A stretch of 60,440 bases of DNA, filler included, from an uncultured virus (IMG/VR IMGVR_UViG_2124908030_000016) (Duplodnaviria > Heunggongvirae > Uroviricota > Caudoviricetes). It is 12 parts of one record of this genome, joined end to end, with 100 filler letters (N's around TTAATTAATTAA, not from the genome) between each part and the next. Parts side by side here need not be neighbours in the genome. Positions count along the whole stretch, not along the records: positions 4,916 to 9,665 come from IMGVR_UViG_2124908030_000016; 11 more parts are not named here. One strand, 5' to 3'. Position numbers and translations under genes: made by a program. Below the pieces are notes generated by a model. The model searched no databases. It saw nothing but the letters and a program-made list of their open reading frames with translations, and was not told where the DNA came from. Positions within the stretch are counted from its first letter, which is position 1. The number at the start of each line of letters is the position of its first letter. Of the stretch, positions 2,121 through 56,675 are shown piece by piece.

Positions 2121-4042
2121 TTATGTGATCCTCCGAACTGTGTAGTAGTACAGCTGATTCTCCGAAATCGTGGTATCGGTATAACTCGTCGTTGATGCAC
2201 TGAGCCCACTTTTGACCGCGGTCCCGAGCGATCCTGCTGTTGTCGATCTGAAGACTGACCACGACCCCGTACCGTTGTTATCGTTTTTAACCCAGCTAAC
2301 AGTTATTTCACCATTGACTGACGCGTCAAGGTTGATACTTCCGGGTGGGAGAATCGTCGTCACTTGTCCGACCGAACTGTCTTGAGTGGCTATGGACTGG
2401 GCACTCCCATTTCGGTATTGGTCAATCTCCGTACGAATTTTCACATCGTGAATTTCGCCGTCGATAAGGCCCGACTGCGTGAACGAGCTAACGGTCGGGC
2501 CGGAGAGAGGCTCGATATTGTACGACGTTGCCTCGTTATTCTTTATCAGAACTCCTGACGCTCACCGAACGTGGCGTTGACCGTCCACGCTCCGTTGATC
2601 TCGCCCTGAGTTGGTGTTGAAAGCGAGAGACNNNNNNNNNNNNNNNNNNNNTTGTATTCATAGCCGAGTGTTCGGAGATTACTCCACGCGGTTCCGTCGT
2701 ACCATTCAAGATCTGCGAATTCCGTAGAATTGTCCATTGAGCCAGCAGCCATTGCACAGCTCACAATGACATCAGACTCGCTGGAGAGGTCACCAAGGTT
2801 CTTTTCGATGCGCCCAGATCCGTCGAGCTGGGCGTAATATGTCCCCTGATTAGCCCCCGAAATACCGGCATCGGTCAGCCCACTCGATGAGATCAGCGCG
2901 TCCTGCTCAACAAAGTCCCACTCGGCGAAGTCCTGATCTTCAAAATCGTCCGAGAAATAGACGTTGCCCTCGTTACCGTAGTCAGCATACACGTATGGTG
3001 ACTGTTGAAGAGACGATTCCTGGTTGTGGAAATGTGCGACTCGTAGCTGATAGCGAGCGTCTTGCCCGAGGAATGCGTTTGTACTGGCCGTGTACGAGCG
3101 TGTCGTTGTCGTTCCCTTCGACGCGCCCGAGATCGTCTCGATGGAAGTCCACGCTCCGTATCCAGTTCCTGTATCTTCTCGATATTGGATATCCACATTA
3201 GCTACCGACCCCATATCCGAATCGTGTGTGAACGTCAGGTCGATTGCGTCACTGCTAGGGCGACTCACACTCGGCTCAGTTGGTGGAACTGGGGTTGTGT
3301 AATGCGTATTCGAGCTTGTATATCCAGACGTCCCGGCTGAGTTCACAGCGCGAACCCGGAATACAAACGACGAGTCGATCCCAACGACACTGGAGACCGA
3401 ATTGTCACTGTTCGGGCCGTAGTTGTAGCTCTGCGTCGACGTCGACCCACCCGGACTTGATGGACCACCACTCGGAGCAACGAAGGATGCCCCGTCACGG
3501 CTCATCTGGACGTCGTACGAGCCAACATCTCCACCCCAATCGTTCGGAGATCCGACAGTTACGCCGATGTTGTCGTTGTCGTTGACAGATAATGAGACAG
3601 ACGAGGGAGATGAAGGAGATGTAAGATCAGGGTACGTCGTTATCGATGCCCACATATAGTTGATATCGAATTCAAATATAGCAAGCCCCTCACTTGCGCC
3701 GGATGTAACGTCGGCGTGACTATTACTACTCGGGAATCCCGGGCTATTATTCTGTGCCCGGGTATAATCTGCCCCTTTGGAGTCCACCATCAGGTAGTAG
3801 GCATTCCCCGGGCTTAGATTACTCGGAGGAGTGATAGTTCCCCCTTCACCAAAACTGAATTGTTTCTCCTTCAGTATATTTCCGTCAATATCAAGTATAT
3901 ACGCGTGATTTCCACCAGCAGGGCCGTAGAGGGTAAAATCGAGTTTCTTTATTGGGGTCTTCGGCTCTATTTTGATCCCGAGTTTGGACGAGACCTGAGT
4001 CCCGGAGCTGCGGTGTGGCGGGAGATTAAGAAACTCGCTCAT
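2121..4042 (-). CDS. Fibronectin type III repeat virion protein (gap at 2632-2652; apparent 1-nt frameshift near 2548)
   Basis: FN3 motifs FRVRAVNSAGTS, YQLRVAH and TSYTDTT..YYYTVR. ORFs 2546..4042 and 2121..2444 join if GAGTTCTGATAAAG lacks one C. Confidence 0.7.
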
Positions 4043-5446: not shown

Positions 5447-5712
5447 AGCATCTTGATGGACCCGTTCTGAACACGAAGGTGATACTCGTCGTCAAGCTCG
5501 AAGCGGATCGATGGGCTCAGCGTGATCTCGTCGGATTCGTCGTCTGGATTTTCCCACGTCCACGTGGGGTCTGGATACGGGCTGTCTCTCCCATCGACGT
5601 GAAACGGGAACGACCCCAGGAGTTGACCATCGCCGAGATGGACGTAGCCACCCGTCTCATCGTCGTTCATCCCCACGCCGATCACTCGGATCTCCTCAGT
5701 CATCGGAGCCAC
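5443..5712 (-). CDS. Hypothetical protein
   Basis: Acidic ORF with a WTW...ITLSPSI motif, in an operon. Confidence 0.55.
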   Translation of the reverse strand: MAPMTEEIRVIGVGMNDDETGGYVHLGDGQLLGSFPFHVDGRDSPYPDPTWTWENPDDESDEITLSPSIRFELDDEYHLRVQNGSIKML

Positions 5713-5932
5713 TCAGTGCTTCGGCGAGAGACTTTGTCGCGTCTGCCTTTTCACTCTCAGGATCGTCGTAGATCCCGAGTTCTTTGAGGCGCTTCGAGAC
5801 GTCACGATCGAGACGCGACAGTGGGAGGTTGACCGGATGTTCGTCGACCGTCATCTGTGGTTCTCCGTGCTCGCCGTAGTCGGTCACCTGTTCTTTGATC
5901 ATCCCTTCGAACTCCCCGTTGTCGTCGACGAG
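5696..5932 (-). CDS. Putative terminase small subunit, C-terminal part (5' end in gap)
   Basis: EHPVNLPLSRLDRDVSKRLKELGIYDDPESEKADA resembles the C-termini of haloviral small terminases; it heads the virion operon. Confidence 0.55.
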   Translation of the reverse strand, partial: LVDDNGEFEGMIKEQVTDYGEHGEPQMTVDEHPVNLPLSRLDRDVSKRLKELGIYDDPESEKADATKSLAEALSGSDD

Positions 5933-6043: not shown

Positions 6044-6658
6044 TCAGAACACCAACTCTGCGTACTTCTTCCGGATGTGTCGTCTAACCGACATTATATC
6101 GTTCGTATCGAGGTCGAGGTCGTCGAGCAGGCGTTGTGCGTTCTCGCGGTTGAGTGTCCTGTGTTCGATATGCCCAGGCTCGTACATTGGAGAGCGTGCG
6201 CGTTCGTAGACTGTTTGATCTATCAGCAGAGACAACACCGCGAAGACGTACGCTTCTTGTGGGTACTGGCCCGCTCGTGCGTCGATCAAGTCGACGATAC
6301 GTGTGGTCTCTTCGATCAGATATGAACTCGCATCGAGCTGGGTGCCGAAGATCTCGGCCCATCGAGCTTTGTCTGCCCAGGAGTTCTGGCGCCAGCGATC
6401 TGGCTCACCGACGCCGTCGTTCCAACTCGCGAGATCACTCCACGAACGACGGTCTTCTGGCGCTCGATGTTTCTGGGGCGGTGTTACCGAATCGACATCA
6501 TCTGGATAGAATGTCGTTCTCGTGTTCGACCGGCCGTCGTTCGGATGACGTCGTGCGTTCGCCCGGATCCATCCATCAGTGCGGTCGCCCTCAGCGTGCC
6601 CAGGGCGGTCGTCGAGGAACTTCGCAATCGCGCCTTCTGGAAGTGGCTCGTCGTCCAT
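6044..6658 (-). CDS. TFIIB cyclin-fold-like / haloarchaeal 'RNAP epsilon'-like protein
   Basis: Helical pattern WSDLASWNDG...DKARWAEIFGTQLDAS..IEETTRIV.......PQEAYVFAVLSLLID. Confidence 0.4.
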   Translation of the reverse strand: MDDEPLPEGAIAKFLDDRPGHAEGDRTDGWIRANARRHPNDGRSNTRTTFYPDDVDSVTPPQKHRAPEDRRSWSDLASWNDGVGEPDRWRQNSWADKARWAEIFGTQLDASSYLIEETTRIVDLIDARAGQYPQEAYVFAVLSLLIDQTVYERARSPMYEPGHIEHRTLNRENAQRLLDDLDLDTNDIMSVRRHIRKKYAELVF

Positions 6659-6823
6659 CAGCGACCGAGGCGACAGAATGTATAAAACGTACACGGTCGA
6701 GTTACTTTATTCTTTCGGGTGTGGGCGTTGGTGTTGCGCAAAACGCCGGAATTCTGGGAGCAGAATCGGGTCGATTTTCGCGAACGTGTACAGCGGTTGT
6801 GTAACAGCACGACGTTTCGCCCT

Positions 6824-6833: not shown

Positions 6834-7210
6834 TGTATCCGCCGGTGGACAGCTAGGCCGTGCCGTGTGCGGGAGTGACCTCATCACGATACGGACGGGA
6901 CCGCGTCGCAACCTGCTATGGACTATCCTATTCGTGGACCGGGTCGGCCGTCGTGGCCCCTTGCATCGGTGCGTTCACATCTCCCGCAACGGTGGACCGG
7001 GTCGGCTGATACGAAAGACGACGGTCGACGGTGGGCCACCCAGGGGTCCCGCGCGTGCTCGAACACCCGCAACACACCGCACTCGCCCGCGCGGGACAGC
7101 ACATTGCGCGCGCCAACAGTCTGGCCTTCCGCCATCGCCCTTGAAGGCCTCCACCGGCGCAAACCGCGCGCCGGTGTAACCTCCAAGGGGATGCCGGATA
7201 CCAGGCCTGT

Positions 7211-7444
7211 ATGGCGCACAAGAGCCATAGCGACGAGTCGAAGCGCTACGAATTAATCAAGTGCAAGCAGTGTGGTAGCGTCACCGAGGAGAGCACAGTC
7301 GAGTGGCTGGAGCCCCCCATAGTCCCCAAGCGACATCGGGGCCCCGGTTCGTACGACCCGACTCCTGACTCGATTGCGATGCCCTGTTGTGGTCACGTTC
7401 AGCACTGCGCAAAGAAAATCCAAGAGCGCATCGAAGGGACGTAG
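7211..7444 (+). CDS. Small zinc-ribbon protein
   Basis: CKQC...CCGH motifs; followed by a T-tract. Confidence 0.6.
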   Translation: MAHKSHSDESKRYELIKCKQCGSVTEESTVEWLEPPIVPKRHRGPGSYDPTPDSIAMPCCGHVQHCAKKIQERIEGT

Positions 7445-7452
7445 GCACAGGC

Positions 7453-7467
7453 GCTCTCTTTTTTATT
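7453..7467 (+). terminator. Archaeal oligo-T terminator
   Basis: CTCTCTTTTTTATT directly after the stop at 7444. Confidence 0.5.
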
Positions 7468-7568
7468 GCTTACGACAAGGAGCGGTCCTTCGGACGCTCC
7501 ACTCTCGCGAGCAAGCTCGCTCGAGTCCCGGTGGACAGTCGGGGTCGTCGTCGAGCTCGCGAGCCCGA

Positions 7569-7675
7569 TGGACGTCGACTCGATCAGCCTGACCGACGTC
7601 GTTGCCCTCGAGTTCGTGACCGGCTTGGACGTCGACTCGATCCGCCTGGACGTCGACTCGATCCGCCTGGACGTC
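7569..7675. repeat. 21-bp tandem repeat TGGACGTCGACTCGATCCGCC
   Basis: Exact copies at 7626-7646 and 7647-7667, a partial copy at 7668-7675 and a near copy at 7569-7591. Confidence 0.85.
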
Positions 7676-8800
7676 CTCGAGCTCGTCATCGGGAGAGACA
7701 CGGTCGTCGATCGCGGGACTCGCGCCGGGGCGTCGACGTCGAGCTAGATCAGTCGTGTCGGCGGGACTCGTGCCGACGTCGGCCCCGACGGGACTTGATT
7801 CGACGAACCAGACACTAGTTCGAACAGCTATGAAGCCCCGAGACGCTCGCGGTCGCTCGGCGACATATCGACCCGACCGGGTCACTGTCGGTCGGGCCCA
7901 CGCGGGGGCGAACGTGACTCCTCGTCAGAGGCGCTTCGCGCTCGCACCGTGCGGATTAGCCACGTTGGGCCGTGTCGGGGCGGACGACGATACTCGGGCC
8001 CGGTCGGGCCGATAGGGCACGACCGAGCGACAGCGTCGCGAGCGGCACTCCCCTTGATCCCCCTCTCGGTGGGTCAGTTTGCCCTCCACGCTCAAACGGC
8101 TGATGTCCGAGGCTCATCCCCGCGCCTTGCCGAGCTGACGCACCCGAAACACGGCGAATTCGGCTCGGCGAGCCGAAGTTCGCCCGCATCGACCGGCTCA
8201 GCGAGCTGACCCGGCCGATTTCGGGCGCCTCAGCTGTCAAGTCACGCGGACTCCCTGCGCGCGCTCAATCACCACAAAGCACCGCACTCGCGCGCTCGGT
8301 CGGGGTCTATCCGACCTTCGCTTCCTCCACTCCTCGTCTCCTGCGCCCGCTCGAGAGCGGTCGCTTCGAACGGTCTGAAACGCTGAGATACCCGCTCTCG
8401 GCGGACCCTACCCGCTCGGTTACCGCACAGACCGCACTCGCGGGTCCCTTCCACCGACATCGCGCATCTCAGCATCCAGACCGTCCGAATCGGAACAGAT
8501 TCGCGCACGTCTCGAAACGCTGAACCACACCGCGATTCCGGCCGGTTCAGTCTAAGCTGAACCGGCACCGTCGGAATCGGGCGGTTCAGCATTCGAGACC
8601 CACGCCAATCTGGCCGTCTGGAGACGGCCTCGTCGGAACATTAATTTCTTCCAACTTGACCCTTCGGCTCATACGGCTCGGGCGACCAGCAGGGCACGTC
8701 GCGCACGCGCGGAACGCGCGCACGGAAATAGAATAGCGTCGCCCGAGCCGAACAGGGTCGCGTCCTGACGGCCAATGACGTGGTTGCCGATTCGCGGAAC

Positions 8801-9123
8801 TGCGGGCCCTGACCACCGACGGCCGATTCGGTCTCCGCAAAGCACCGCACGAATCGGCCGGCTCAGCGCTCCTCGCCCTCCACGAATCGACAATCTGTGC
8901 AGTGCACAGACCGTCAGAACCCGACAGGCGCTCCTGCGGGCCCTGACCACCGACGACCGATTTCCGGTGGAAATCGGCCGGCTCAGGGCTCCTCGAGGAG
9001 CGCGCCTGCCGAAGAGTCAAGTATGGAACCACGAGCGCCGGTCTGCTTGTTGCGGGCGCTGACCACCGACGGCCGATTCGAACTCCGCAAAGACCGCACG
9101 AATCGGCCGGCTCAGCGCTCCTC
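8801..9123. repeat. Array of three hairpin-forming repeats (60-74 bp) with unique spacers
   Basis: TGCGGGC(C/G)CTGACCACCGACG(G/A)CCGATT...AATCGGCCGGCTCAG(C/G)GCTCCTC at 8801-8874, 8935-8994 and 9051-9123. Confidence 0.9.
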
Positions 9124-9164
9124 ACGGCGCGGACGGCGCTCGTTGAAATCATACCTTCGTGTGT

Positions 9165-9665
9165 ATGTCCGAACAGGACAGCCCAGGCAGTGCGGTGGAT
9201 TGTGCGGATACTAACAGCAGCGGTGGCGAGGTCGCTCGGCAGACGTCGATTACCATCATCGCGGATGAAGACCTTGCGGAGGATTCGAACTCAGGCGGGA
9301 AGCGTCGAAAAGACGCACTGAAGACGGTCCGGAGTTGCGTCGAACGGATTGCTAACCTCGACGACCAGCTCGCAATTGGCTTCTGTCGTCAACTCGGTGG
9401 GGACGTCGCAGCAGGATTCAACAAGTGGCAGGTCGTCTTCGAGGACCGTGCGTGGGGTCGAACGCGCGAATTCGAGGCAGATTGGGAATCGCACGGATGC
9501 GAGGCGTGGAACGACCCCCGCGTCGAACACAATCACCGGACGTGCCAGCGGTGCCACGTCGTGGACGCCCCGAAGGCTCGTGACCAGCGAATTGCGCTCT
9601 GGTCCGACATCCTCCTTGTGCTCGGTGAGCAGGACTACCTCGATAGACTGATTGAGACCGCGCGT
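9165..9665 (+). CDS. SLOG/YspA (DUF2493)-like protein, 3' truncated
   Basis: GGD..A...FEADWESHG...ARDQRIALWSDILLVLG matches the SLOG pattern ADW..HG...RN..M...D. Confidence 0.45.
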
Positions 9666-9765: not shown

Positions 9766-10318
9766 CCCCGCAGGCTGGCGGGGTGTTGCGGTAACAGCTC
9801 CAGGTCATACCGAACGGGACGTCGAGATCGTGGCCGGTGTCGACGATCCGTGTTTTCGAGTAGTCGAGAAACGGTGTCTGGAGAGAGATCGAGGTGCCGG
9901 GGGCTGTCCCAGTGATTATCGTTTCCTGGAAGGCGCAGAGAAACTCATACGCGCAGTCGGGGTACTGACTTTCGTGAATGCCCGTCCAGATAGCCGAACA
10001 GTTGTTGGCCTCGGCGTAGGCCGTCGCCATCGACAGGAGCGTGGCGTTTCGGAACGGCACGTATGTCTCGACGATCTCTCCGTCGATGGCTTCACCATCG
10101 GTCAGCGCTGAGCCCTGGAGGTCAGTCGTGTCGATGGTGTGGACGTTCGCGACGTCGTAGTGCTCACACAGCTCCAGGACAGCCTGGTGTTCGGCCTGAG
10201 CGGTTTCTTGGCCGTACGAACAGTGGACGACGTGTGTCTCACCATCGACCTGACAGGCCAGTCCAAGAGCTGTTGCACTGTCGAGGCCACCCGAAAGGAG
10301 GACCACATTGGATCTCAT
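9766..10318 (-). CDS. queC: 7-cyano-7-deazaguanine (preQ0) synthase QueC, 3' truncated
   Basis: SGGLDS PP-loop, YGQ, TYVPFRNA, YPDC, TPF...SK, TWSCY...CG. Confidence 0.95.
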
Positions 10319-10349
10319 TGCGACGGACCGCAGTCGTCAGAGACGAGAT

Positions 10350-11030
10350 CTAGACGTCTGCCGTCGGAGTCGGCTCGTTCGTGTCTGCCAGTCGCCGGAT
10401 CACGTAGAACGCCGGCGTGTCCAGCACCGCGACAGCCAGCTTGACCACGTACTGGCCCACGATCAGCTCGGGCAGGACGGCCAGGGGGGTCGTCGTCCCT
10501 CCGAGGAATACCGGGAGCACGGCGAAGGCCAGAACGATGAACAGCGCGGTGTCGACGATCTGACTGACGCCGGTCGAGCCGATGTTACGGATCCACGCGT
10601 GATCACCGTTGGTTGCCTCACCGAGGAACGCGAACACGGAGACGTCGATATTCTGACTGACGAGTGTGGTCGCGATCGACGCGAGGACGATGGTCCCACC
10701 GGCACCGAGGGTGGTCGCGTAGGCCTCGTTGGCCTCGAAGAACGGCGCAGCGGGCATCGAGATGGCCACGTAGATCAGTCCCCACGCAACGGTGAGGGCG
10801 ACGACGGTCGCGTTGACAGCTCGTCGAGCGGTCGGTGCGCCGTAGAGCTCGCCCAAGAGGTCGGTACAGAGGAACGCCACGCCGATCCCGACGAACCCGG
10901 CTGGGACGGCCACACCGCCCAGGAACGGGATGTCGAAGAACGCGAGCTTGGCTGCGGAGACGTTTGCGATAGCGATACTGACACCGAACATCACGGTGAG
11001 TGCGGTCGCAGTGAAGTTGTTGTTAGTCAT
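10350..11030 (-). CDS. yhhQ: Queuosine-precursor transporter, VUT/YhhQ family
   Basis: IANVSAAK, FLCTDLLGELYG, SQNIDV, WIRNIGST.VSQIVDT, K..VAVLDTP; multi-TM. Confidence 0.92.
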   Translation of the reverse strand: MTNNNFTATALTVMFGVSIAIANVSAAKLAFFDIPFLGGVAVPAGFVGIGVAFLCTDLLGELYGAPTARRAVNATVVALTVAWGLIYVAISMPAAPFFEANEAYATTLGAGGTIVLASIATTLVSQNIDVSVFAFLGEATNGDHAWIRNIGSTGVSQIVDTALFIVLAFAVLPVFLGGTTTPLAVLPELIVGQYVVKLAVAVLDTPAFYVIRRLADTNEPTPTADV

Positions 11031-11825
11031 CTGCGGGTACGAAGATAGAGGTGTTCTGCGTGCTGTGCTGGTCGAGGATCTGTTCGATCTCCGGAGAAAG
11101 TGGTTCCGTCGGGACGTCCGACTCGCGAACGTCTGGCCCCAGATAGTAGGTCAACTGGTAGAGGACGTACTCCTGGATCATCGCCGACAGAACCGAGGAG
11201 TTCGTCCCCCGTGGGTGGCCCCACTTGACGTACTCGAACTCCGGAGTCAGCATCTTGTTGCTGGTGACGGTGTTTGCGACACTCGACATATCGATGGAGT
11301 CGACGAGGTCGGGGGCCTCACGGAGCGTAGTTATCCACTGGGGTGATGCGCCGAACCCCAGGCCGTGGAGGTGGACACCGGGGGCGATGGCCTCTCTGAC
11401 TTCGACGAGTGCGCGAAGCTGACCCTCCATAGACCAGTCTTTCACGCCACCAACAGCGAGCCACTCGTCGTCGACGTCAAGGCCCTGGTCGGCGAACGCC
11501 TGTGTGAGCTGGTAGTAGTGCTCGGAGTGTGTCCCCACCTCACCATCGTCAGGCTGAAGCGGGATCATCACGGTCGGTCTGTTCTCACCGAGCTTCGCTA
11601 CCAGATCTAGGACTCGTTCGGTCGTCGCCTCCTGGTCGTGCCAGACGTCGGCTGGAACGACGACATCCGGGTCGATGTCACTGGTTCGCTTGATGACACG
11701 GTCGTTGCCGACATCGTCGTTTCCAATCGTGGAGTCGAGGATGTACGTGTCTGCTTGCTCAGAGAGCGTTGGTGACGCGTACTCGGTGTTGCCCAACAGA
11801 TGTGGGTACTCGAGCATCGCGAGTG
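11023..11825 (-). CDS. TGT-fold 7-deazaguanine transglycosylase-like protein (DpdA-like #1; 5' end may lie in the gap)
   Basis: ILDS, VPADV, IPLQ, LAVGGV, HLHGLGFG and DSIDMSS TGT-barrel motifs; coupled to yhhQ-queC. Confidence 0.75.
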
Positions 11826-14346: not shown

Positions 14347-15094
14347 AGTCTTCGTCTTTGATACGGAGGTCGATACCGTGGTGGATCAGCTGGTGTTCGT
14401 CCTCGGGAACGACGGAGATGTTCTCGGGTCGGTTGTCGATCTCGAGGTGGTTCTCGTGATGCACGTTGGTATCGTCGCTGAAGACCTCGGAGACCGAGTT
14501 CTCCTCGAGAGCACGGAGTTGGTGGAGACGGAGGGAACACTCTTCTATCGAGAACTTGGCGTATCCGTGAGCTCGGTCGTACTCGTAGTAGAGAGATGGA
14601 GCTGGTGTCGAGGATGCTATCTCCGCTGGGTAGGGGTCGTCTTTCACGATCCCGTGGGTGGAGCACGCTCGACTGATTCCACTTTGATCTGTTTCGGTTA
14701 GCAGTGAGACCTTTGCTTGTGTGAGATCGTCTGTAATGTACTTCCGACGAAGCCAGGCTGCACTGTGGTGAAGTTTCTGGACACCATATTCGTGGTGTTC
14801 GTCCGAGAGGCCGAACTCGTCACACCAGTTGTCGATTGTATCGGTGGAGACACCACAACACTCGGCGATTTCGGTTTTCTCGACTCCGTCGTCGATGTAT
14901 ATCTCGCGAAGCCACGGCTCCTGTTGGTGGCGAACCGTGAGATCGTATTCTCGACACCAACGACCGATGGTCGACCCGGTGACCCCACACAGTCGGCCAA
15001 TTTCCCTCTGAGTGAGATTCTCTGCAACGTACTTCTCACGGAGCCATTGTTTGCGACGATATCGAACGTCGGCCGAAGACTCGGTTTTCGACAC
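14347..15094 (-). CDS. HNH homing endonuclease with three N-terminal HTH repeats
   Basis: Three WLR.kY repeats; VHHENHLEIDNRPENI....HQLIH HNH motif. Confidence 0.85.
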
Positions 15095-15124
15095 AGTTAG
15101 CGTTTATTCTCCACGCAGGTAATT

Positions 15125-15247
15125 CTATCGGCTTCTTCGACGTGGCAAGAACATATAGCCGAGAACGAACAGACCGATTGAGAGGCAGGATGCGACAAAC
15201 CCGCCGACAAATGCCCACATCATCCATATCACCCACTGAACGCCCAT
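15125..15247 (-). CDS. 40-aa single-TM peptide (not in ORF track)
   Basis: MGVQWVIWMMWAFVGGFVASCLSIGLFVLGYMFLPRRRSR, downstream of the promoter dyad at 15269-15253. Confidence 0.5.
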   Translation of the reverse strand: MGVQWVIWMMWAFVGGFVASCLSIGLFVLGYMFLPRRRSR

Positions 15248-15387
15248 CTCGTGTATATTCACTTTACACGTAATTAATTCTTTTGGGTGTCACTCGTATT
15301 CGGCTGGCTGAGAAAGCGGAGGGGTAATCGGGTGACGGTGCCCCACCGAAGTCACTGGCGTTCCAGCCAGTGCCTCGGAGGGTGTGT

Positions 15388-15861
15388 TCAAAAGGAGAAT
15401 TCGGTTTTGATCTCGTCCCAGGCATCCTCGAGGTTGAGGATCAGCTCGTCGTTGACATTCTCACCCATCGGAATGGACGTCGTGAGCAGTCCCGACATCA
15501 CACGCTCGATCTCACGGCGCTGGTTATTGTTGTGGATATCACATTCGCGGAGCGTCTGGGCCCACTCCGTGGAGGGGAGCTCGCGAAGGGTGTCTTCCCA
15601 CATCTGAACAGCTGACTCCCTGGCGGTGGGTACGCGCTCGGCGTAGTAGACCTCACCTACGAGATCCTCTACATCATCACCGGTCAGGTCGGTCGTGTCG
15701 AACAGCGCATTCAGCACTTCGCGGGCGAACTGGTCATCATCGGCCTCATCAGGACGCGAACGCTGGGTGCTCGTGTGTGTATCTCCCTGTTTGATACCGA
15801 CCGCGAGGAAGAGATCGGAGCCGAAGGCGACTGTGGTTGGAGCTTGGGTATGCTCTGTCAC
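15388..15861 (-). CDS. Hypothetical protein
   Basis: Acidic 157-aa ORF with a promoter-motif variant upstream and a T-tract downstream. Confidence 0.65.
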   Translation of the reverse strand: MTEHTQAPTTVAFGSDLFLAVGIKQGDTHTSTQRSRPDEADDDQFAREVLNALFDTTDLTGDDVEDLVGEVYYAERVPTARESAVQMWEDTLRELPSTEWAQTLRECDIHNNNQRREIERVMSGLLTTSIPMGENVNDELILNLEDAWDEIKTEFSF

Positions 15862-16022
15862 ATTTGTCGTACGCGTTTGAAGAACTTTACACTATCGTTT
15901 GTACTACTCGGGGTATCGCTAACTGTCGTTCGGGCTCGACGACCGCGAAGATATCGTCGAGGCGATCACTACCGTCGAGCGTCGTGAGTGTAGGTGAGTT
16001 TCGATGAACCCGAATCGGCCTA

Positions 16023-16796
16023 TCAGAGTGTATCGGTCTGGAGTGCGGTCTTGGGAACGTACGAGTGGAGTACGTTGAGGAGCGCCCAGGTCGCCCTGAT
16101 GTCGTCGCGGTTGTGTTCGACGACAGCGGAGAGGTCGTGCCTGGAGAGTGCGTTCGGGATGTCTGCACCGCCGAGGGGGCTGGTTGGCTCGAACTCAGTC
16201 AGGAGTTTGGCCATTCCGTCGAGCGAGCGCTGACTCGAAGTCGGGACGTCCCGGTCTTGTTGATCGATGAACGCGGAGAGTTCAGCCGGCTGGGGATCTC
16301 GCTGTTCGATGGCCTCAGCGATATCGCTCTTGTAGGCATCGCTGGGGTAGTCCACCTCGAGGTAGTCGGCGAACTCGCCGAGTGGGCGTTTGTTGAGCCC
16401 GCCCCAGTCCGGGGTTGTCAGATTGAAGAACGTCTCGAGCTCGTCTTTGATTTCGAGGATCTCGGCATCGACGAGTGGCCAGTCGACGTCGAGCTGAGCA
16501 CATCGCGAGCGGAGCATCGGGATGTCGAACGAAGAAGACCCGTAGCGCTGTTCTGCGTTGAAACCGACGAGTTTCGTGGTCAGGAGGCTGTGCTCGTCGC
16601 ACAGTGCCGGCAGACCCTTCGCGAGAAGGTTTGCTTCGCAGCTGTATTCCTCGATGGTTCCGTTCTCGATGTCGGGGGGGCCGTATTTTCCGTTGAGGTA
16701 GAACGTCACCTCGTCTCCGGTTCCGACACCGATGACGGCGACCTCGCTGTCGGCGGTCAGTCCCGTTGTCTCGATATCGAATGCGACGTAGTTCAT
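16023..16796 (-). CDS. DEDD / RNase H-like 3'-5' exonuclease with an inserted HeH/Rho-N-like helical motif
   Basis: AFDIETTG, VGFN...FDIPML, SLD, HNRDDI; insert LGEFADYLEVDYPSDAYKSDIAEAI. Confidence 0.8.
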   Translation of the reverse strand: MNYVAFDIETTGLTADSEVAVIGVGTGDEVTFYLNGKYGPPDIENGTIEEYSCEANLLAKGLPALCDEHSLLTTKLVGFNAEQRYGSSSFDIPMLRSRCAQLDVDWPLVDAEILEIKDELETFFNLTTPDWGGLNKRPLGEFADYLEVDYPSDAYKSDIAEAIEQRDPQPAELSAFIDQQDRDVPTSSQRSLDGMAKLLTEFEPTSPLGGADIPNALSRHDLSAVVEHNRDDIRATWALLNVLHSYVPKTALQTDTL

Positions 16797-16826
16797 CGTA
16801 CGCGCAATTGTATTCACGTTAAGAAG

Positions 16827-17276
16827 TTATAACTGTCGACTTGGAGTATGGAGTGCAATATCGTCGGGGTTGAACGCCACATCGTGGTTGTTGCAGACGG
16901 TAACGATGGTGTCGATGCCATCGTCGAGGTCGCTCCGGAGACTGGTGGCGGGGTATTCTGCCCAGACGCTGACAGGATCTGGGGAGTCCCAGACGATAAA
17001 ACACACAGGACGGTGGATGATGTCTCCCAGGAAGCACTCCACGGGTGTCCCCCAGGTTGGTTCTCCGGCGTAGTGGACCAGCAGGCCGTCGGCCTGACCG
17101 ACTCGACTGAGGTCGTTCGCGATCAGCTCGTCGGCCGGGGGGAGCGCGTCCGGTTCGTAGTCGTCCAGTGGGTTCAGTGTCGAGACACGGCTGTCTCGCT
17201 CGACTCGTTCACGCCAGGACCGGCCGGCATTCTGCGCCTTCCTGACGGGCCCAGCGAGGTAGATGAGTGGGTTCAT
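16827..17276 (-). CDS. Nucleoside 2'-deoxyribosyltransferase / dNMP N-glycosidase-like protein
   Basis: IYLAGP, WR, LNP, DL..V..ADGLLV, GTPVE. Confidence 0.8.
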   Translation of the reverse strand: MNPLIYLAGPVRKAQNAGRSWRERVERDSRVSTLNPLDDYEPDALPPADELIANDLSRVGQADGLLVHYAGEPTWGTPVECFLGDIIHRPVCFIVWDSPDPVSVWAEYPATSLRSDLDDGIDTIVTVCNNHDVAFNPDDIALHTPSRQL

Positions 17277-17296
17277 NNNNNNNNNNNNNNNNNNNN

Positions 17297-17545
17297 CGAT
17301 GCCCACGAGCTACGCTCGATATCGCTGAAGTCGTGAAGCGTCGTGTCGTACGGGTCGATTCGGTCGTCGAGCTCGAGGAGCCCGTACTCTGCGCTCACGA
17401 TGTAGGGGTCGCCGAGGTAGGTCCCAGTCGTGAGTTTCGTCTCGAAGTACGTCGAGTCGTACATCGCGTAGGCTGGCAGACGCTCGTCACGCTTCGACGA
17501 GCCACAACCGACCAGTATAGCGCGACGTCCTGTATCGCAGTCCAC
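17297..17545 (-). CDS. DUF6884-like protein (3' end in gap)
   Basis: LVGCGSSK....A..MY.S.YF......IVSAEYGLL.....I.PYD.TL. Confidence 0.7.
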
Positions 17546-17586
17546 GACGTTTTGTATACGTTTGACGAACTTAATCGTTGTGTATA

Positions 17587-18534
17587 CTATGAGTAGATGT
17601 CGGCGAAGATCTGCTGGGCTTCTTTATCGCTCGAGGCGTTGACTGCCGGACTTTCGTAGTCGACTGCGGACTCGCCCTGTTGGAGCCGGGTGACGTAGGA
17701 GTAGTAGCTCTTGAACGACTCGACCTTGCGCGCTTTCAGGTTTCCAGGAATGTTGAAGCGGGCGAGTCTGTTGCCGATATCGACACTGACGTACTCGTTC
17801 ATTGCTGGGTAGAGCCAGGCCTGGGTGTCCGCCGACTCGAACTCAGAGCCGTACTGAAACGCCTCGATCTTCACGCCGAACCCGTGGATGATTTCGGGGT
17901 CGATCCGTGAGCGGACGGCCTGTTCGTAGTCGACGATCTCCGGGTCATTGGAGATGCCCGTGATAGAGCCCAACCCGACGTGGTCAGTTGGCAGACCGTG
18001 GTCCTCAAGCCGTTCATAAAATGCAACGTGCTCGTCCGGTGTCGTGCCCTGAAGTACGGGGAGAAGTTGGTAGTCGGCCGACGAGTCTTCGAGGCGTTCG
18101 TACTGGCGGAGTGTATTCTGGAAGGTCGTCTCGATACGATCGTCGGACGACCAGAGACCGTCGAAAAGTTCTGAACACGCATAGTCCATCGCAGACGCCC
18201 AGGTTACTTCGTCGTCGTAGTCGGCGAGCCACTGGTGGTAGTCCTCGACTGTCCAGGGGTAGAACGGAGATGGCGTACAGAGTTCTTTGACGATGTCGTC
18301 TCCGGTGATGTCTGCATCGAGCTCACCATCTCGGGTGACGAACGTCGACTGGACATTGTAGCCCCCGGCGTCGATTGCGTGGGGACAGTCGTACGTCCAC
18401 ATATGGAGGAGGCGTTCCTGGGCGTCAGAGTATCGATGGAGAGCGTTCGACAACAACGGGACATCGTTTGCTTCTGCCCACGGGGCGATTATGTCCGGGT
18501 ATGACCGGGCGTAGGTCATAAAGAATGTGCCCAC
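17587..18534 (-). CDS. dpdA: Phage-type deazaguanine DNA transglycosylase (DpdA-like #2)
   Basis: IDAGGY, Y..W, AMDYAC, LLPVLQG, VGLGSI, IHGFGVK, SADTQAW. Confidence 0.8.
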   Translation of the reverse strand: MGTFFMTYARSYPDIIAPWAEANDVPLLSNALHRYSDAQERLLHMWTYDCPHAIDAGGYNVQSTFVTRDGELDADITGDDIVKELCTPSPFYPWTVEDYHQWLADYDDEVTWASAMDYACSELFDGLWSSDDRIETTFQNTLRQYERLEDSSADYQLLPVLQGTTPDEHVAFYERLEDHGLPTDHVGLGSITGISNDPEIVDYEQAVRSRIDPEIIHGFGVKIEAFQYGSEFESADTQAWLYPAMNEYVSVDIGNRLARFNIPGNLKARKVESFKSYYSYVTRLQQGESAVDYESPAVNASSDKEAQQIFADIYS

Positions 18535-18610
18535 GATACACTACAGGGTATCACGCACTTAATTATTGCTGTTGCTGATCGGCTTCGAAAAGAGAAGTGT
18601 GGGTTCGGCG

Positions 18611-18978
18611 TTACGAGTCGAGCTGGTCCTGGATCTTTTCCGGGACCTCGACTCCCTGCTGACGGCAGGCGGTGGCGATCGTCTCAGCATCTGGTCGGTG
18701 CCACTCCAGGTAGCCCGTCGAGAGGACCAGTGACTCGTCGGGTTCGAACTCCTCAGTCGGCGAGAGTTCGGTGAACCCGTCACCGTCGCGACTCATTACA
18801 GTCGCCCAGTAGCCGGAGTCGGTGTCGAGCGCGGGTTTGTTCTCTGCACGCTCGAGCACGAAGACGACTTCCTCACCATCGAGGTCGGGCCGGAGCTGCG
18901 TGTCTCGGCTGAACCGTGGGGGCGAGTAGTTGTTGTCGTCGTTGTCCGGGCAGTACTCGATCAGCGAGTTGCTACGCG
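18611..18978 (-). CDS. Hypothetical protein (5' end in gap)
   Basis: Open acidic frame extending to the gap. Confidence 0.5.
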
Positions 18979-19175
18979 NNNNNNNNNNNNNNNNNNNNNN
19001 NNNNNNNNNNNNNNNNNNNNNNTTAATTAATTAANNNNNNNNNNNNNNNNNNNNNNNNNNNNNNNNNNNNNNNNNNNNCCTCATCGGCATACGCCGGGAT
19101 GTCTCATTCACGTGCGGAGCGGGTTGCTAGTGAGCTCGATACGATTCAGGCACTCGTCGAGGTGTACGAGTCGTC

Positions 19176-19409
19176 GTGAGCAAGACCATCTACATCAACG
19201 GTACAGCCTTTGACATCCCAGCAGACACCGAGACAATCGCCGAGGTGCTGGAGTCGACAAACTACAGTCAAACCAACTATCGGCTCTTTCGAGATGTCGG
19301 GAATACGGTTGCTGCCGAAGAGCGTGTCGTGAGTGCAACCCAGATCGGTGATGGGCAGCAACTCATCGCGATCCCACGCGGAGAGACACTGTTCGGGTAC
19401 GATGAGTAA
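19176..19409 (+). CDS. Ubiquitin-like (multi-ubiquitin beta-grasp) protein
   Basis: IYINGTAFDI...TIAEVL......YRLFR.......IGDGQQLIAIP....G pattern. Confidence 0.55.
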   Translation: MSKTIYINGTAFDIPADTETIAEVLESTNYSQTNYRLFRDVGNTVAAEERVVSATQIGDGQQLIAIPRGETLFGYDE

Positions 19410-20190
19410 AATCACCCCCTTTCCCTGGTACGGGTCGAAATACACCCAAGTATCGTGGCTACTGGACATCATTCCGGAGAACAACCGGTACCTGGAGCCG
19501 TTCGGGGGGAGCGGAATCGTCCTCGCCAACCGTGACCCAGTCGAGGTCGAGACGTTCAACGACATTCACGGTGGTGTGGTGAACTTCTTCGAGGTCGTGC
19601 GGAGACAGCCGGGTGAGCTGAAGCGACAGCTCGAGTGGACACCGTACTCTCGGGAGATGTACCAACAGGCAGTCGAACACACGCCAGAAGATGACGTCCA
19701 GCGTGCAGTCTATTTTCTGGTTCGGATCGCACAGTCGTTCGGAGGCGCAGAAGCGAACGGGTGGGGACGCTCGATCACTACCTCTCGTCGAGGCAAGGCA
19801 CAGCGTCCGGCTGCCTGGGAACACCGGCTCGAGCAGATCGAAGAAGTGGCGAAGCGGTTTCGACGAGTCCAGCTCGAGTCGACCGACGCGATCGGGCTGA
19901 TCGAGGACTTCGATGAATCGAAGCTCACCATCTACTGTGATCCACCGTACCCACCATCAGCCCGTGTAGCCAAGAACAAATACGTCCACGAGTTCGATGC
20001 CGACCAGCATCGACAGCTCGCAGAGACGCTTCGTTCGTGTGAGGCTGACGTTGTTGTCTCTGGGTATCGATGTGATCTCCTCGACGACTGCTACGACGGA
20101 TGGAACTGCTATCTCGAGGGCGAAAAGACTCTCGCAGGGGCTGAAACAGGGTCTCGAGAAGAGGTCTGTTACACGAACTTCGATGGCTGA
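19402..20190 (+). CDS. DNA adenine methyltransferase, D12/Dam class
   Basis: PFPWYGSK, EPFGGSG, NDIH, DPPY. Confidence 0.92.
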   Translation: MSKITPFPWYGSKYTQVSWLLDIIPENNRYLEPFGGSGIVLANRDPVEVETFNDIHGGVVNFFEVVRRQPGELKRQLEWTPYSREMYQQAVEHTPEDDVQRAVYFLVRIAQSFGGAEANGWGRSITTSRRGKAQRPAAWEHRLEQIEEVAKRFRRVQLESTDAIGLIEDFDESKLTIYCDPPYPPSARVAKNKYVHEFDADQHRQLAETLRSCEADVVVSGYRCDLLDDCYDGWNCYLEGEKTLAGAETGSREEVCYTNFDG

Positions 20191-20305
20191 ACTACAGGCG
20201 CTACTGCTTACAGCCGGACTATTCGGATTCGTCGTCGCGGGTGTCGTTGAGTTCGTGGCAACGATGATTGTCTTTCACACGCGCTCGGAGGAGCGTCCGC
20301 ACTGA
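20183..20305 (+). CDS. Small membrane peptide
   Basis: MAELQALLLTAGLFGFVVAGVVEFVATMIVF; overlaps the methylase stop. Confidence 0.5.
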   Translation: MAELQALLLTAGLFGFVVAGVVEFVATMIVFHTRSEERPH

Positions 20306-20441
20306 GTCAGATTCCTCACTACCCGTCCTACGTCATTAGGCACACGGATCTCGTGTATCAGGCACGGCTGTTCGCGTTGGTCTGGATTGGGACGACAGCA
20401 ATCACCTTCGTCACCGGACTCGTCGTACTCGGCGCAGGATC

Positions 20442-20807
20442 TCAGTCGATGGTCGGCCTGTCAGGACTGGGCCTCAGATCAGTATCGGCGAACTCGGCTG
20501 CTTGTTCGTTTGGTTCGTAGCCCTCTCGCATCCCGATTACCGTTCCGAGTAGCTCGTACGCATCTGGATTTCCCGTCAGATTCATTTCGTCTTTCGTCTT
20601 GTCGTGGTCGTACGCGAGGTTGTTCTCGGGGTTGACGGCGATGTTGCAGTCGCGTCCGTACATATAGTACTCGACGGTGGCGTCGAGACACGAGGCATAT
20701 CGCCTGCTTGTGTACATCCCCGTTTGGTGAGTGACCTCACCGTCCTCGTCTTCGATCGACAGTGTGACGTTGGTTGTTCGCTCGACGAACGGACTTTGTC
20801 GTCCCAT
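20442..20807 (-). CDS. Hypothetical protein
   Basis: Acidic part of ORF 20442..20987, from ATG 20807. Confidence 0.55.
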   Translation of the reverse strand: MGRQSPFVERTTNVTLSIEDEDGEVTHQTGMYTSRRYASCLDATVEYYMYGRDCNIAVNPENNLAYDHDKTKDEMNLTGNPDAYELLGTVIGMREGYEPNEQAAEFADTDLRPSPDRPTID

Positions 20808-20857
20808 ACCAGCACGTTCGTACCGCACGATCAAAAGTTTATCGCGTGAGGCGAATA

Positions 20858-23677
20858 CTATCGTTGGCTGGGGAACGGTTCGTCGTACTGGTCGGCGAGG
20901 TCGTGGAGCATCTGGATGATGGGAATGCCATCGTCCTCGTCGAGATTGACGATAGCTTTCTTTGACGACTTCACCAGGGAGTTCCATTCCACGGACGAAC
21001 GGTCGAACGTATCCGTCGGGAACAGTGCGTGGAGGAACACAGAGATGAACCGGTCGCGCCAGTTGTCCGAGCTGAACAGTCGTCTGGAGTTATGATTCAT
21101 TGGCTTGTTCCAGCGACGACTTGAGACGAAGTGAAGATCAGGTGCCGTCGACGTCGGTTGAACTGGGGTAGTGCCGGAGAGACAGCACCAGTGTTTGGTG
21201 ATGGATTGTGGATCGGAGATGACAAGGCGGTCGTACGTTTCGAGATCATCGAGTGTATCCCTACTGTCGAACCGCTCGAGGAGATTTGGAAGTGGGTCGT
21301 CGATGAATATGCCATCGCCGTTGACCCACGTATTGAGTCCGTGCGCGACAGGTTCGGTGAACACCCAGTAGAGTGTCTCATCGCCGAGTTTGTTCGCTTC
21401 GACTGATTCTGTCGTGACAGTACGTGGGGGTCCGTCGTCGTACTGGTCGAGTGGGATGGTTTCGACGGGTGAGGTCTCGTGTGCCTCGGCGATGGGGTCG
21501 AACGAGCTGACTGCCCGGTCGTGATCTAACAGGTAGTCTGCGACGTACCGTGGGACAATGGTTCGACGGATACCGAATTGAGAGAGCTTGCTCCCTGCTG
21601 AAACACTCTGGACATCAGGTTGCTCGTACACCAGTAGGAAATCGAACTTGTCGTTGTCGAGTGCTTCGATGGCCTGGTCACAGGTCATCTCTCTGTACGA
21701 GCCTCGGGGAGTATTGGTGCGGATCTTGATCTTCCGGTCACTAGGGTTGTTTGCTGTCCCAGTCGACCTCGAGGACGAATCCGGGGAACCCGAGCTCGAG
21801 CGCTCGTACCTTTCAGCGAGTTCATCGCTCACATTCGGGTGTTTCTCTTTGATATTGTACAGCGAGAGGTCCTTCAGTTTCTTCCAGTCGAACGCACGCT
21901 CGAACATCTCGTACTGGCCAGAGTCTGAGAGAGTGACGATGACGACGTCGTCGTGGATAGCTTCGGCGAGTTTGGCCTTCTGATTGTTTATTGAGACACC
22001 CATATACACCGTTTCGCATTTCCGTTCGATCTTGCCTGCCAGCGAATTGGATCCTCCGCCGATCCCGGAGCAGTCGACGTGCTGGCAGATCTGAGACAGG
22101 ACACGCCCGGTGTCTTCACAGGATAGTGATAGATTGAGTTCGTCGGTGACGTTATTCAGGATTGTTTGGTGCGTTACCCGCCTCGAGCGTGGAGAGCTGA
22201 CGTGTTCGACGAACTCCATCAGGAGTTCCATTTCGGCGCTGTCGAACGCCGAGACAGCAGACACACCGTCTTTGTGGATGTCCATCACCAGCTCTGTGAC
22301 TTGTGAGCGGAGCTGGTCGTACAGTCGATTCGCGACCGATTTGAACACCACGCTGTCGTGATCACGAAGTCGATCGCGGTCGTCGACGGGTTCTGGGAGT
22401 GGGATGTCGCTGGTGTCACACGCAGACTGTTTGACGTAGTACTCGAGATGTGGTTCCGCGCGGGCCCAGAACTCGTCGCGACTGACGACTGGTCTCCCTT
22501 CGTATTCGCCATCGACGACGGTTTTCTGTTGTTCCGTGTCGTCGACGGTCGCCATATGAGGCAGGACTGATTCACAGACGACATCGACTGCCTGGAGTGC
22601 TTCTCGCTCGTAGCGTTCATCACTGATCGGCACAGACCCGGTGTGTGGCCCGGTGAACAGACGACCGTCTTCGAATTTCAGCCTGACGTCGAAGTTCCAC
22701 AGCGACGAGTACGACCCTGTGTAGGTATCCTCGTTTCGGTCGATAGGCATCGACACGAGGAACGTCTCGGTTTCGTTCTCGTCTAGATACGGTGATGAGA
22801 CAGCTTCGATGAACTCATCTTCGTATGTGACTGTACACCGGTCGTCCGGAATCCTGTTGCTGAGTTCCGACGGTGGGTACTCCTCGTTGAGCGTCTCGTT
22901 GCCTGACTCGTCGTACTCGTGATAGATGACGGGGACACGAAGGCCCTTCTGGAACCGTTCGACGGCCTCCTGGATGTCGAGGTCGCGAGCATCTTGTGTG
23001 AATGACGGGAACGTCCAGGTCGTTCCATAGTGCTCACGAGCTCCCTGGAGGTCATTGAACCCGTCAATGCGCATCTGTACGCGATAGTTAGCGTCATCGA
23101 AGAACGACTACGTCGTGAGTCCGAGCCGGCCGTTCTCTCCGACGAAATTGAATCCACTCATCACACCTTGGCCGAACATTCCTGACTCGTCACCCTTGTC
23201 GTGTGACGTCGAGAGACCGATCTTTCGGAGGACACGGAACTCTTCGATGCTGATTCCAACGCCGTTGTCGGCGATAGTGAGGGTCGGTTTATCCGACTCG
23301 TGGTGTGCGTGGTGAACCTCGATGACTGGGAGATACCCAGTGTCGTTTCGCGCGCACTCGATCAGCTCGGTCGGTGAGAGATCAGCAGTCTCTCCCTCGA
23401 GCTCACATCGACAGCGACGAATACCAGCAGTTTCAGCATTAGCGATGTACTCACGAAGTGCTGAGGCAGGGTCCTCGTACCGAAATGCGAATCCTCGGCC
23501 AGCACGTCGCTTGTCGTATTGGAACTCTCTGTGGTCCGAATCACCGAGAGCTTCCTTCAGGTCGTGGTCTGTGTTTGCCCCATCGACCTGTTCGGGGGGT
23601 CTAACGTCCCCCGGTACGTATTGGGACTCGTTGAACGGCTGCTTATGACTCATCGACAACCGGTTCTCAGTACTCAC
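20858..23677 (-). CDS. rIIA-like / MORC-type GHKL ATPase protein with an in-frame TAG at 23108-23110
   Basis: ALREYIANA, IADNGVGI and GMFGQG motifs; ORFs 23108..23677 and 20858..23074 are in the same frame. Confidence 0.75.
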
Positions 23678-29294: not shown

Positions 29295-30667
29295 AGTTCC
29301 TCCAGAGAGCCCGCAATCGAGTGGAAGACCGGCTCCATATCACACGATTCGTCGTGGCTGAAAACCGACACACGCTCCGTATGAGCGCGCTTGAGGACGA
29401 CTCGCTTTCGGACGTTGAATACCGGAATCGCGTCTCCAAATATCTCTTCGAACCAGTCGACCATTCGTTCCGATTCACCGTCGATGTCGATTCTGTTGAC
29501 GACAACACCGGNNNNNNNNNNNNNNNNNNNNNNNNNNNNNNNNNNNNNNNNNNNNNNNNNNNNNNNNNNNNNNNNNNNNNNNNNNNNNNNNNNNNNNNNN
29601 NNNNNNNNNNNNNNNNNNNNNNNNNNNNNNNNNNNNNNNNNNNNNNNNNNNNNNNNNNNNNNNNNNNNNNNNNNNNNNNNNNNNNNNNNNNNNNNNNNNN
29701 NNNNNNNNNNNNNNNNNNNNNNNNNNNNNNNNNNNNNNNNNNNNNNNNNNNNNNNNNNNNNNNNNNNNNNNNNNNNNNNNNNNNNNNNNNNNNNNNNNNN
29801 NNNNNNNNNNNNNNNNNNNNNNNNNNNNNNNNNNNNNNNNNNNNNNNNNNNNNNNNNNNNNNNNNNNNNNNNNNNNNNNNNNNNNNNNNNNNNNNNNNNN
29901 NNNNNNNNNNNNNNNNNNNNNNNNNNNNNNNNNNNNNNNNNNNNNNNNNNNNNNNNNNNNNNNNNNNNNNNNNNNNNNNNNNNNNNNNNNNNNNNNNNNN
30001 NNNNNNNNNNNNNNNNNNNNNNNNNNNNNNNNNNNNNNNNNNNNNNNNNNNNNNNNNNNNNNNNNNNNNNNNNNNNNNNNNNNNNNNNNNNNNNNNNNNN
30101 NNNNNNNNNNNNNNNNNNNNNNNNNNNNNNNNNNNNNNNNNNNNNNNNNNNNNNNNNNNNNNNNNNNNNNNNNNNNNNNNNNNNNNNNNNNNNNNNNNNN
30201 NNNNNNNNNNNNNNNNNNNNNNNNNNNNNNNNNNNNNNNNNNNNNNNNNNNNNNNNNNNNNNNNNNNNNNNNNNNNNNNNNNNNNNNNNNNNNNNNNNNN
30301 NNNNNNNTGTTCCGACGAGCTCGTCGATGGCGTCTGTGAGTCGGAGTCGGCCTCGCATCGCGTTGTACAGGTCCTGCTCTGCGGTGAACAGGTCCATATT
30401 TGACGGAACGACGTCCATCTCGTCGTGTACGAGCACGACGTCGTTGAGGTCGTTGGTTTCGTTGAGTAGCACTGACGGGAAGTTCGGTGGCTCGTTGAGG
30501 TACTCGTCTCTGAACCCGAGTCCCTCGGTTGCGTTTCCCTGCGGGTCGCAATCGACGAAGAGGACGTCGTGTCCCCGCTCGTTCAGCGCACCTGCGACGT
30601 TGATGCTGACCATTGTCTTCCCGACCCCGCCTTTCTGAAGCGAGACAGCGACGTGTGTTGCTGTCAT
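29291..30667 (-). CDS. parA: ParA/Soj partition ATPase (middle in the gap 29512-30307)
   Basis: QKGGVGKT, VDCDPQGNAT, DVVPSN; C-terminal GVVVNR...VRKRV.L.RA. Confidence 0.9.
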   Translation of the reverse strand: MTATHVAVSLQKGGVGKTMVSINVAGALNERGHDVLFVDCDPQGNATEGLGFRDEYLNEPPNFPSVLLNETNDLNDVVLVHDEMDVVPSNMDLFTAEQDLYNAMRGRLRLTDAIDELVGTXXXXXXXXXXXXXXXXXXXXXXXXXXXXXXXXXXXXXXXXXXXXXXXXXXXXXXXXXXXXXXXXXXXXXXXXXXXXXXXXXXXXXXXXXXXXXXXXXXXXXXXXXXXXXXXXXXXXXXXXXXXXXXXXXXXXXXXXXXXXXXXXXXXXXXXXXXXXXXXXXXXXXXXXXXXXXXXXXXXXXXXXXXXXXXXXXXXXXXXXXXXXXXXXXXXXXXXXXXXXXXXXXXXXXXXXXXXXXXXXXXXXXXXXXXXXXXXXXXXXXXXXXXGVVVNRIDIDGESERMVDWFEEIFGDAIPVFNVRKRVVLKRAHTERVSVFSHDESCDMEPVFHSIAGSLEEL

Positions 30668-30953
30668 TGACCTCAACGATATCAACGAAATCACCTAAAT
30701 CTACGTCAGACGCCAGTCTGACTGCCTTTCTAAACTCGTGTAAAAACAACGACTTCAGAACCCTACACGTCGTGAAGACATCTGGCGAAGGTAGGGAATC
30801 TCCACTCCCTCATTCACGATAACCTTCGCTCCCCATTTTTGAGTCAAGGGTCGTTTTTTCCTTGGCTTTAGATGCGTTCGCATATCGACTCGATTCGGAT
30901 ATTAGTTGTACGCAAGCAAACTCTTAATACTGCCGGTTAGCGATATCACCCGT

Positions 30954-56540: not shown

Positions 56541-56559
56541 GCGATGAGTAAGCGGTCGT

Positions 56560-56635
56560 GCCAGCCGAGCGTGGGTCTGGTACACGCGCTTCCTTTGTAA
56601 GGAAGAGTTCTCGGGTTCGAATCCTGAGGCTGGCT
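56560..56635 (+). tRNA. tRNA-Thr(TGT)
   Basis: GCCAGCC/GGCTGGC; GCGT/ACGC; CTTCC-TTTGTAA-GGAAG; TCGGG-TTCGAAT-CCTGA. Confidence 0.93.
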
Positions 56636-56675
56636 TCTTCGTAACAATTAGGTGCGTCAACTACGTACGACGAGT

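Follow-up and report, generated by a model that had tools for sequence, protein, structure and literature searches.

The window, that is, the whole stretch of DNA analysed (60,440 nucleotides, filler included), consists of scaffolds connected end to end through runs of N, and the hairpin array described here lies in the segment 4916-9665. Because of this joining, genes outside the segment are not proven neighbours of the array. Judging by its predicted genes (PolB, ribonucleotide reductase, ThyX, QueC, DpdA, RtcB and a terminase small subunit-like protein), the content of the window points to the bin of a tailed halovirus. Genes for 7-deazaguanine modification of DNA, comprising QueC, a Vut_1 transporter, a TGT-like gene and DpdA, lie at 9767-11817 and 17590-18534; they and the array are on different scaffolds and their linkage is unproven. 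Other scaffolds (30308-30694, 42574-44328 and 55113-57804) carry a ParA-like gene, a PolB gene with a LAGLIDADG-like stretch, RtcB, an RNA ligase and two tRNA genes. In a hypersaline run (X1), one contig covers 6700-9660 uninterrupted, with 15 differences and 3 gaps relative to the window. Since X1 may be the source sample, this contig confirms the assembly, not the range of the element.

Between a conserved halovirus gene and a divergent SLOG-like gene lies a non-coding region that folds into long hairpins from about 8120 to 9140 (Table 1). The minus strand of the array folds better than the plus strand (-611.6 versus -502.5 kcal/mol; z -13.3 for the minus strand against 20 shuffles), and the folding strand forms 40 G-U pairs compared with 11 on the other strand. 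The X1 contig differs from the window by a compensatory pair of changes at 8546 and 8561, a double change for which template switching could be an alternative source. Just outside the array, at 8033-8066, X1 shows 8 substitutions in 34 bases, compared with four in the 1.05 kb of the array itself. The TATGATTT box at the array edge does not pair consistently in the folded strand; on the other strand it may serve the divergent gene as a TATA-like element.

Table 1. Features of the array-bearing segment and their coordinates in the window
Feature	Position	Strand	Basis or counterpart
Terminase small subunit-like ORF	5699-5902		
Conserved halovirus gene preceding the small terminase gene; synteny anchor	6047..6694	-	
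Separate long hairpin, 0.9 kb past the array	7110..7217	-	z -10.9; same position in L009 (8986-9118) and L078 (975-762)
Whole non-coding hairpin array, ~1.05 kb, seven long hairpins and small ones	8110..9160	-	Folding; homologous arrays
Branched module hairpin, 3' end of array	8116..8251	-	Folding
Complete family module, symmetric AGGG/AGGG internal loop (8449-8446, 8409-8406)	8362..8492	-	R1 training sequence
Nested module hairpin, CTGA stems twice	8496..8612	-	Folding; X1 compensatory change 8546/8561; R1 E 0.002
A/T-rich box immediately past the long-range helix	8640..8650	-	Same position in L009 and L107
3' arm of long-range helix	8649..8668	-	Folding
Hairpin with perfect 13-bp basal stem, within the long-range domain	8674..8750	-	Folding
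Hairpin with copy 1 (8801-8874) as core; basal stem from spacer 1	8784..8893	-	Folding; X1 variant at 8867 restores a pair
Hairpin with copy 2 (8935-8994) as core	8928..9003	-	Folding; weak R1 match, E 0.03
5' arm of long-range helix, within spacer 2	9008..9028	-	15-bp helix; counterpart in L009, L107 and L133
Hairpin with copy 3 (9051-9123) as core; basal stem from spacer 2	9031..9143	-	Helix list
Conserved TATGATTT box, 5' edge of array	9146..9153	-	Identical 8-mer at the same edge in L009, L078 and L107; variant in L133
SLOG-like gene, divergent, truncated by the scaffold end (267 aa in P0001); HhH domain at the N-terminus in relatives	9165..9665	+	

The sequence-only reading had described three covarying hairpin repeats on the plus strand, separated by unique spacers. 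All three copies are present, with gaps of 60 and 56 nt; the predicted fold agrees with the stems and the internal loop as described, the 13-mer core of the unit occurs exactly three times in the whole window, and the region 8780-9150 folds better than 100 of 100 shuffles (z -5.05). The exchange of CCCTGA/TCAGGG for CGCTGA/TCAGCG between copies is a true double change, and a mismatch in copy 1 is repaired in the X1 contig, which has G at 8867. The difference between ATTTCC/GGAAAT and ATTCG/CGAAT, also cited as compensatory, is weaker evidence of covariation because an indel adjoins the apex. Other parts of the description need revision. The array is not limited to three units, and it is the minus strand that folds better, although one position per unit forms a wobble on the plus strand only, which runs against minus-strand folding. 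Nor are the spacers free, since 42 of the 60 bases of one and 44 of the 56 of the other find partners beyond the spacer when the minus strand is folded. Since they serve as stem arms, the proposed processing into repeat-spacer RNAs is not supported. The internal loop termed invariant is so among these three copies only, as relatives carry other loops there. The three units are a real but derived corner of a larger array, a local triplication of one truncated module in which the two lower module stems are kept and the AGGG loop is absent.

A second contig of a tailed halovirus has a related array at the corresponding position, and further ones occur in one metagenome contig and five haloarchaeal plasmids. 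Starting from the anchor gene we obtained 12 viral loci, only 5 of which had at least 2.5 kb upstream, and the array was present in one of the 12 (L009). There the layout matches that of the window: a divergent HhH gene comes first, then the hairpin array (1.1 kb), a stretch rich in GTCGAC, the solitary long hairpin, the anchor gene and the terminase genes. HATV-2 has the anchor gene and no array. A motif common to the window and L009 led to L078, the one real locus among 17 metagenome matches; its 1.65-kb array is arranged in the same way, and from this arrangement of genes and array the contig is probably viral. In all three virus-type loci a low-complexity GTCGAC-rich stretch follows the array (window 7440-8100, L009 8000-8420, L078 1200-1730), with 6-21 GTCGAC per kb versus 1.7-3.3 overall; the stretch is absent from the plasmid.

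Using blastn, we found the array on four haloarchaeal plasmids, two of them with identical arrays. A model (R1), built from 16 modules of four replicons, revealed a distant array in Halorientalis marina, one of five other whole plasmids with the OB-fold gene, and no match in pNRC100 and three other plasmids. It also gave one weak module in Halomontanus rarus (E 0.009); the sixth, weak case (L144) lies upstream of a TFIIS gene. Within the replicons searched no dispersed palindrome family is involved; strong R1 matches form one cluster per replicon in all four positive whole records. Exact patterns of the three-copy unit had no match in the viral contigs or genome contigs searched, and none of the 7 matches of a half-unit pattern had a partner arm. 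Among viral pattern scans the L009 contig was the sole real locus (1/3, 1/53 and 1/11), the genome-contig pattern scan yielded the array in 0 of 12 loci, and host chromosomes were searched with two exact patterns only. A blastn search of three arrays against 50,697 phage records gave no meaningful match. We found no description of the array in the literature consulted (mainly open-access texts, and main texts of preprints without supplements); the string 'halo' is absent from the main text of the Minerva preprint. The array is apparently an undescribed element.

Several smaller observations concern these relatives. A 16-base hairpin apex is identical in L009 (7409-7424), L078 and L107 (5311-5326) and absent from the window. 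In L109 (Natribaculum breve) the triloop GAA has been turned into TTC by a small inversion within the inverted repeat (columns 853-855 of alignment A3). Hairpin-rich non-coding DNA of 0.7-1.3 kb precedes the OB-fold gene in five of six plasmids (L134-L137; for pNRC100, L136 3061-3788). Four of these plasmids lack the module and may carry other families of the same kind, one of them in a model organism.

To describe the repeated unit we compared modules across lineages. A full module begins with an outer CTGA stem and continues inward with a CGATTTC/GAAATCG stem, after which two bases usually bulge out; a purine-rich loop, symmetric and with AGGG facing AGGG or AGTG, then leads to a CCCGC/GCGGG stem and a variable apex. 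The window has one full module (8362-8492); in L078 the triplicated unit is itself a full module. Modules are duplicated lineage by lineage, the three units of the window being one such triplication, and arrays range from 1 to 1.6 kb with up to nine repeated modules. In the alignment of 16 copies from four replicons, which are related and were picked by a pattern including part of the stems, pairing holds in 91.4% of cells, and 10 of the 19 pairs show changes in both partners. This covariation was reached by none of 500 shuffles, and slid controls gave 31-49%. On a larger scale, four of five lineages (window, L009, L107 and L133, not L078) form a long-range helix of differing sequence. In the window it has 15 bp with one G-T pair and spans 369 nt; in the other three it spans 313-400 nt and contains TTAA, where the window has TCAA. 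Between plasmid arrays, broken Watson-Crick pairs became G-T in 36 cases versus A-C in 12 (both directions summed; significant in one only), and the arrays are more similar than the adjacent genes (93.6% versus 86.8% identity). Owing to the covariation, array identity above that of the gene, the bias of G-T over A-C and the single cluster per replicon, a strand-specific structure selected in single-stranded form is well supported. The suggestion of such a structure in the sequence-only reading is supported.

Position and orientation of this modular family are conserved as well. In each of the five lineages examined (window, L009, L078, L107/L108/L109 and L133), the adjacent gene has the folding strand as its template. 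In the viruses this gene encodes HhH and SLOG-like domains, a DprA-like arrangement, and in the plasmids it is annotated as an OB-fold, RPA-like protein. For the window gene, the earlier SLOG-like assignment agrees with the nearest Atlas clusters (SLOG at 0.85); Pfam gave no match, its predicted model is of low confidence (pLDDT 51), the best Foldseek row is a molybdenum-cofactor binding protein (E 0.003), and the evidence is weak overall. At the plasmid loci L107, L108, L109 and L133, strand-specific long stem-loops lie upstream of the ssb-like gene on its template strand. Two plasmid types have the array beside VirB4/VirD4-like genes (weak Pfam matches), one of them with a primase-polymerase gene in between. 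In L107, about 8 copies of a 10-base direct repeat, iteron- or oriT-like, lie between the array and the coupling-protein gene (6135-6480). L111 encodes (14768-22264) a VirD4-like protein of 2498 aa; toward its C-terminus, a His and PD-(D/E)XK-like pattern may mark a fused relaxase. According to a recent review, relaxases of archaeal plasmids are still unknown (PMC12282955).

The reading we favour, at about even odds, is that the array is a single-stranded DNA initiation signal akin to bacterial ssi/Frpo. It would then be a cis-acting element of 1-1.6 kb that folds when one particular DNA strand is single-stranded. Its hairpins would remain folded on exposed ssDNA, in plasmids after conjugative entry and in viruses during strand-displacement, rolling-circle or recombination-linked replication, and would offer repeated protein-binding modules. 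Once bound, the modules would launch the synthesis of a primer or transcript that runs toward the neighbouring gene for a DNA-binding protein. We infer here that the folded molecule is DNA, and likewise its binding partner and what starts from the array. The loop census points in this direction: among the 56 triloops formed by the folding strand 10 are of the C-GNA-G type, compared with 17 among 703 in background DNA (p 7e-6) and 2 on the other strand, the signal coming from L078, L107 and L133 only and repeated modules being non-independent counts. No C-GNA-G triloop on a stem of at least 4 occurs in the arrays of the window and L009. GNRA (2 of 41 tetraloops versus 33 of 744 in background) and UNCG (0) are not enriched. 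Also in favour is a comparable purine-rich loop in a hairpin of two filamentous-phage contigs, located just past gene I. Several points count against a DNA signal. To our knowledge, tailed dsDNA viruses have no obvious long single-stranded phase. Under the simplest placement of oriT, between the array and the coupling-protein gene, it is the non-folding strand that would be transferred. The G-T bias and the long-range helices are equally compatible with RNA, and both the module and the array are sparsely distributed (one of five other OB-fold-gene plasmids and one of 12 anchor-gene virus loci, respectively). The TATGATTT box also lacks consistent pairing in the folded strand, and the neighbour in the weak L144 case is a TFIIS gene.

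Several known systems come close to the array. Like Frpo/ssi, the array has long imperfect stem-loops, is strand specific and immediately precedes a gene for an ssDNA-binding protein, whose template strand carries it, in the vicinity of transfer genes; Frpo itself is directly upstream of ssb on the transferred strand (10.1101/2023.02.15.528439), and a domain closed by one helix measures 310-400 nt in the array versus 328 bp for Frpo (PMC7690428). In contrast to the bacterial elements, the array is archaeal, measures 1-1.6 kb, repeats a module with a conserved purine-rich loop up to nine times and is also present in tailed viruses; a -10/-35 mimic is neither expected nor seen in it. The positional agreement holds at the plasmid loci, whereas the viral neighbour is only SLOG/HhH-like. 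On this positional match the array may work like Frpo/ssi; it is not classed as a member. C-GNA-G mini-hairpins are described as far more stable as DNA than as RNA and as part of the ssiA, G4 and N4 signals (PMC13037366). As in ssiA, the G4 origin and the N4 vRNAP promoter, C-GNA-G apices cap several modules in L078, L107 and L133, among them the CCGAAGG form named for RSF1010 ssiA (PMC13037366), but those signals are short and single, and the window copies do not have such loops. In prophages, the ncRNA of UG27 reverse transcriptases forms variable arrays whose hairpin units, ~150 nt each, carry conserved motifs in their internal loops (10.64898/2026.09.22.753630). The present array is alike in its hairpin units and conserved internal-loop motifs; the UG27 hosts are bacteria, the units here share sequence, and no reverse transcriptase was found among the window or plasmid proteins scanned (ORF subsets). 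Regular repeats and a similar gap length recall CRISPR, which the earlier reading rightly set aside: the gaps pair with the flanks, units vary from 60 to 74 nt, no cas family was detected among 47 window proteins scanned, and the window gave 0 Rfam matches at the gathering threshold. K-turn, bulge-helix-bulge, hammerhead, HDV-like, SRP loop, loop E and TIGR were rejected upon by-eye comparison with their consensus features.

It is less likely, though possible, that the array instead encodes a large modular ncRNA, made as one or two transcripts of 1-1.6 kb from the folding strand and divergent from the neighbour gene. Its repeated purine-rich internal loops would let such an RNA serve as a multivalent sponge or scaffold for protein. 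The excess of G-U pairs on the folding strand, seen in the window, recurs in other arrays (39/20, 44/23 and 32/16), the bias of G-T over A-C changes fits RNA, and the long-range helix covaries. Transcription is available in viruses and plasmids alike, and the A/T boxes could be promoters. However, GNRA and UNCG loops are not enriched, the window has no Rfam match, and TATGATTT as a sense-strand TATA box would place the start inside the first helix in both the window and L107. Of the two options left by the sequence-only reading, DNA hairpins are somewhat more likely than RNA, given the loop census and the plasmid context.

We consider it improbable that the folded strand is an ssDNA substrate for a recombinase, nickase or translocase (an attC-like site, an origin of transfer, or a packaging or terminus signal). 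Viral arrays do lie upstream of the terminase operon, and the module, with its two stems, unpaired central loop, two-base bulge and variable apex, resembles attC in outline. Integron attC sites have GTT/AAC core sites and come with gene cassettes. No conserved GTT/AAC core is present in the module alignment (A4), there are no cassettes or genes between modules, and no integrase or HUH family was found among the 47 window proteins scanned. Two A+T-rich filamentous-phage contigs (L113 2520-2566, L117 2634-2679) carry a module-like hairpin with a purine-rich loop right after gene I, on the coding strand. These match R1 with E 1e-4 to 4e-4, a likeness partly forced by the search pattern, and had no match among annotated phages. 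The hairpin sits where packaging signals lie, which would favour a substrate. Equally doubtful is a REP/MITE-like mosaic of palindromic repeats of haloarchaea, selectively neutral or parasitic, that grew by recombination between inverted repeats and owes its paired changes to template switching: modules are nested, duplicated and shuffled between lineages, the N. breve loop is flipped to its reverse complement and hairpin-rich gaps precede the same gene in other haloarchaeal plasmids, but there is one cluster per replicon in the four positive whole records with dispersed copies not found, array identity exceeds that of the neighbour gene, and strand and position are fixed across lineages.

Tentatively, the array may represent a new class of element, a kilobase-scale modular platform of folded nucleic acid exchanged between haloarchaeal tailed viruses and conjugative-type plasmids. 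Its AGGG/AGGG modules would recruit one conserved protein of the host or element, and it would be the first single-strand origin/promoter from archaea or else a large sponge RNA directed against defence. The origin/promoter version, if true, would imply a functional ssDNA phase in tailed dsDNA haloviruses and would show where haloarchaeal plasmids have their leading region. Next to transfer genes, a landmark that is conserved and strand-specific would reveal the direction of transfer and offer a handle on priming. Strains that carry the element are cultured and harmless, among them Natronomonas marina ZY43, Natribaculum longum and Halorientalis marina. The presence of the array in tailed viruses is unexpected under a DNA or an RNA reading. 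Separately, four further loci (L112, L114, L116 and L119, ~3500-4030) contain G+C-rich paired palindromes with the same CCCGC/GCGGG apex, which we take to resemble alphaproteobacterial REP-like repeats.
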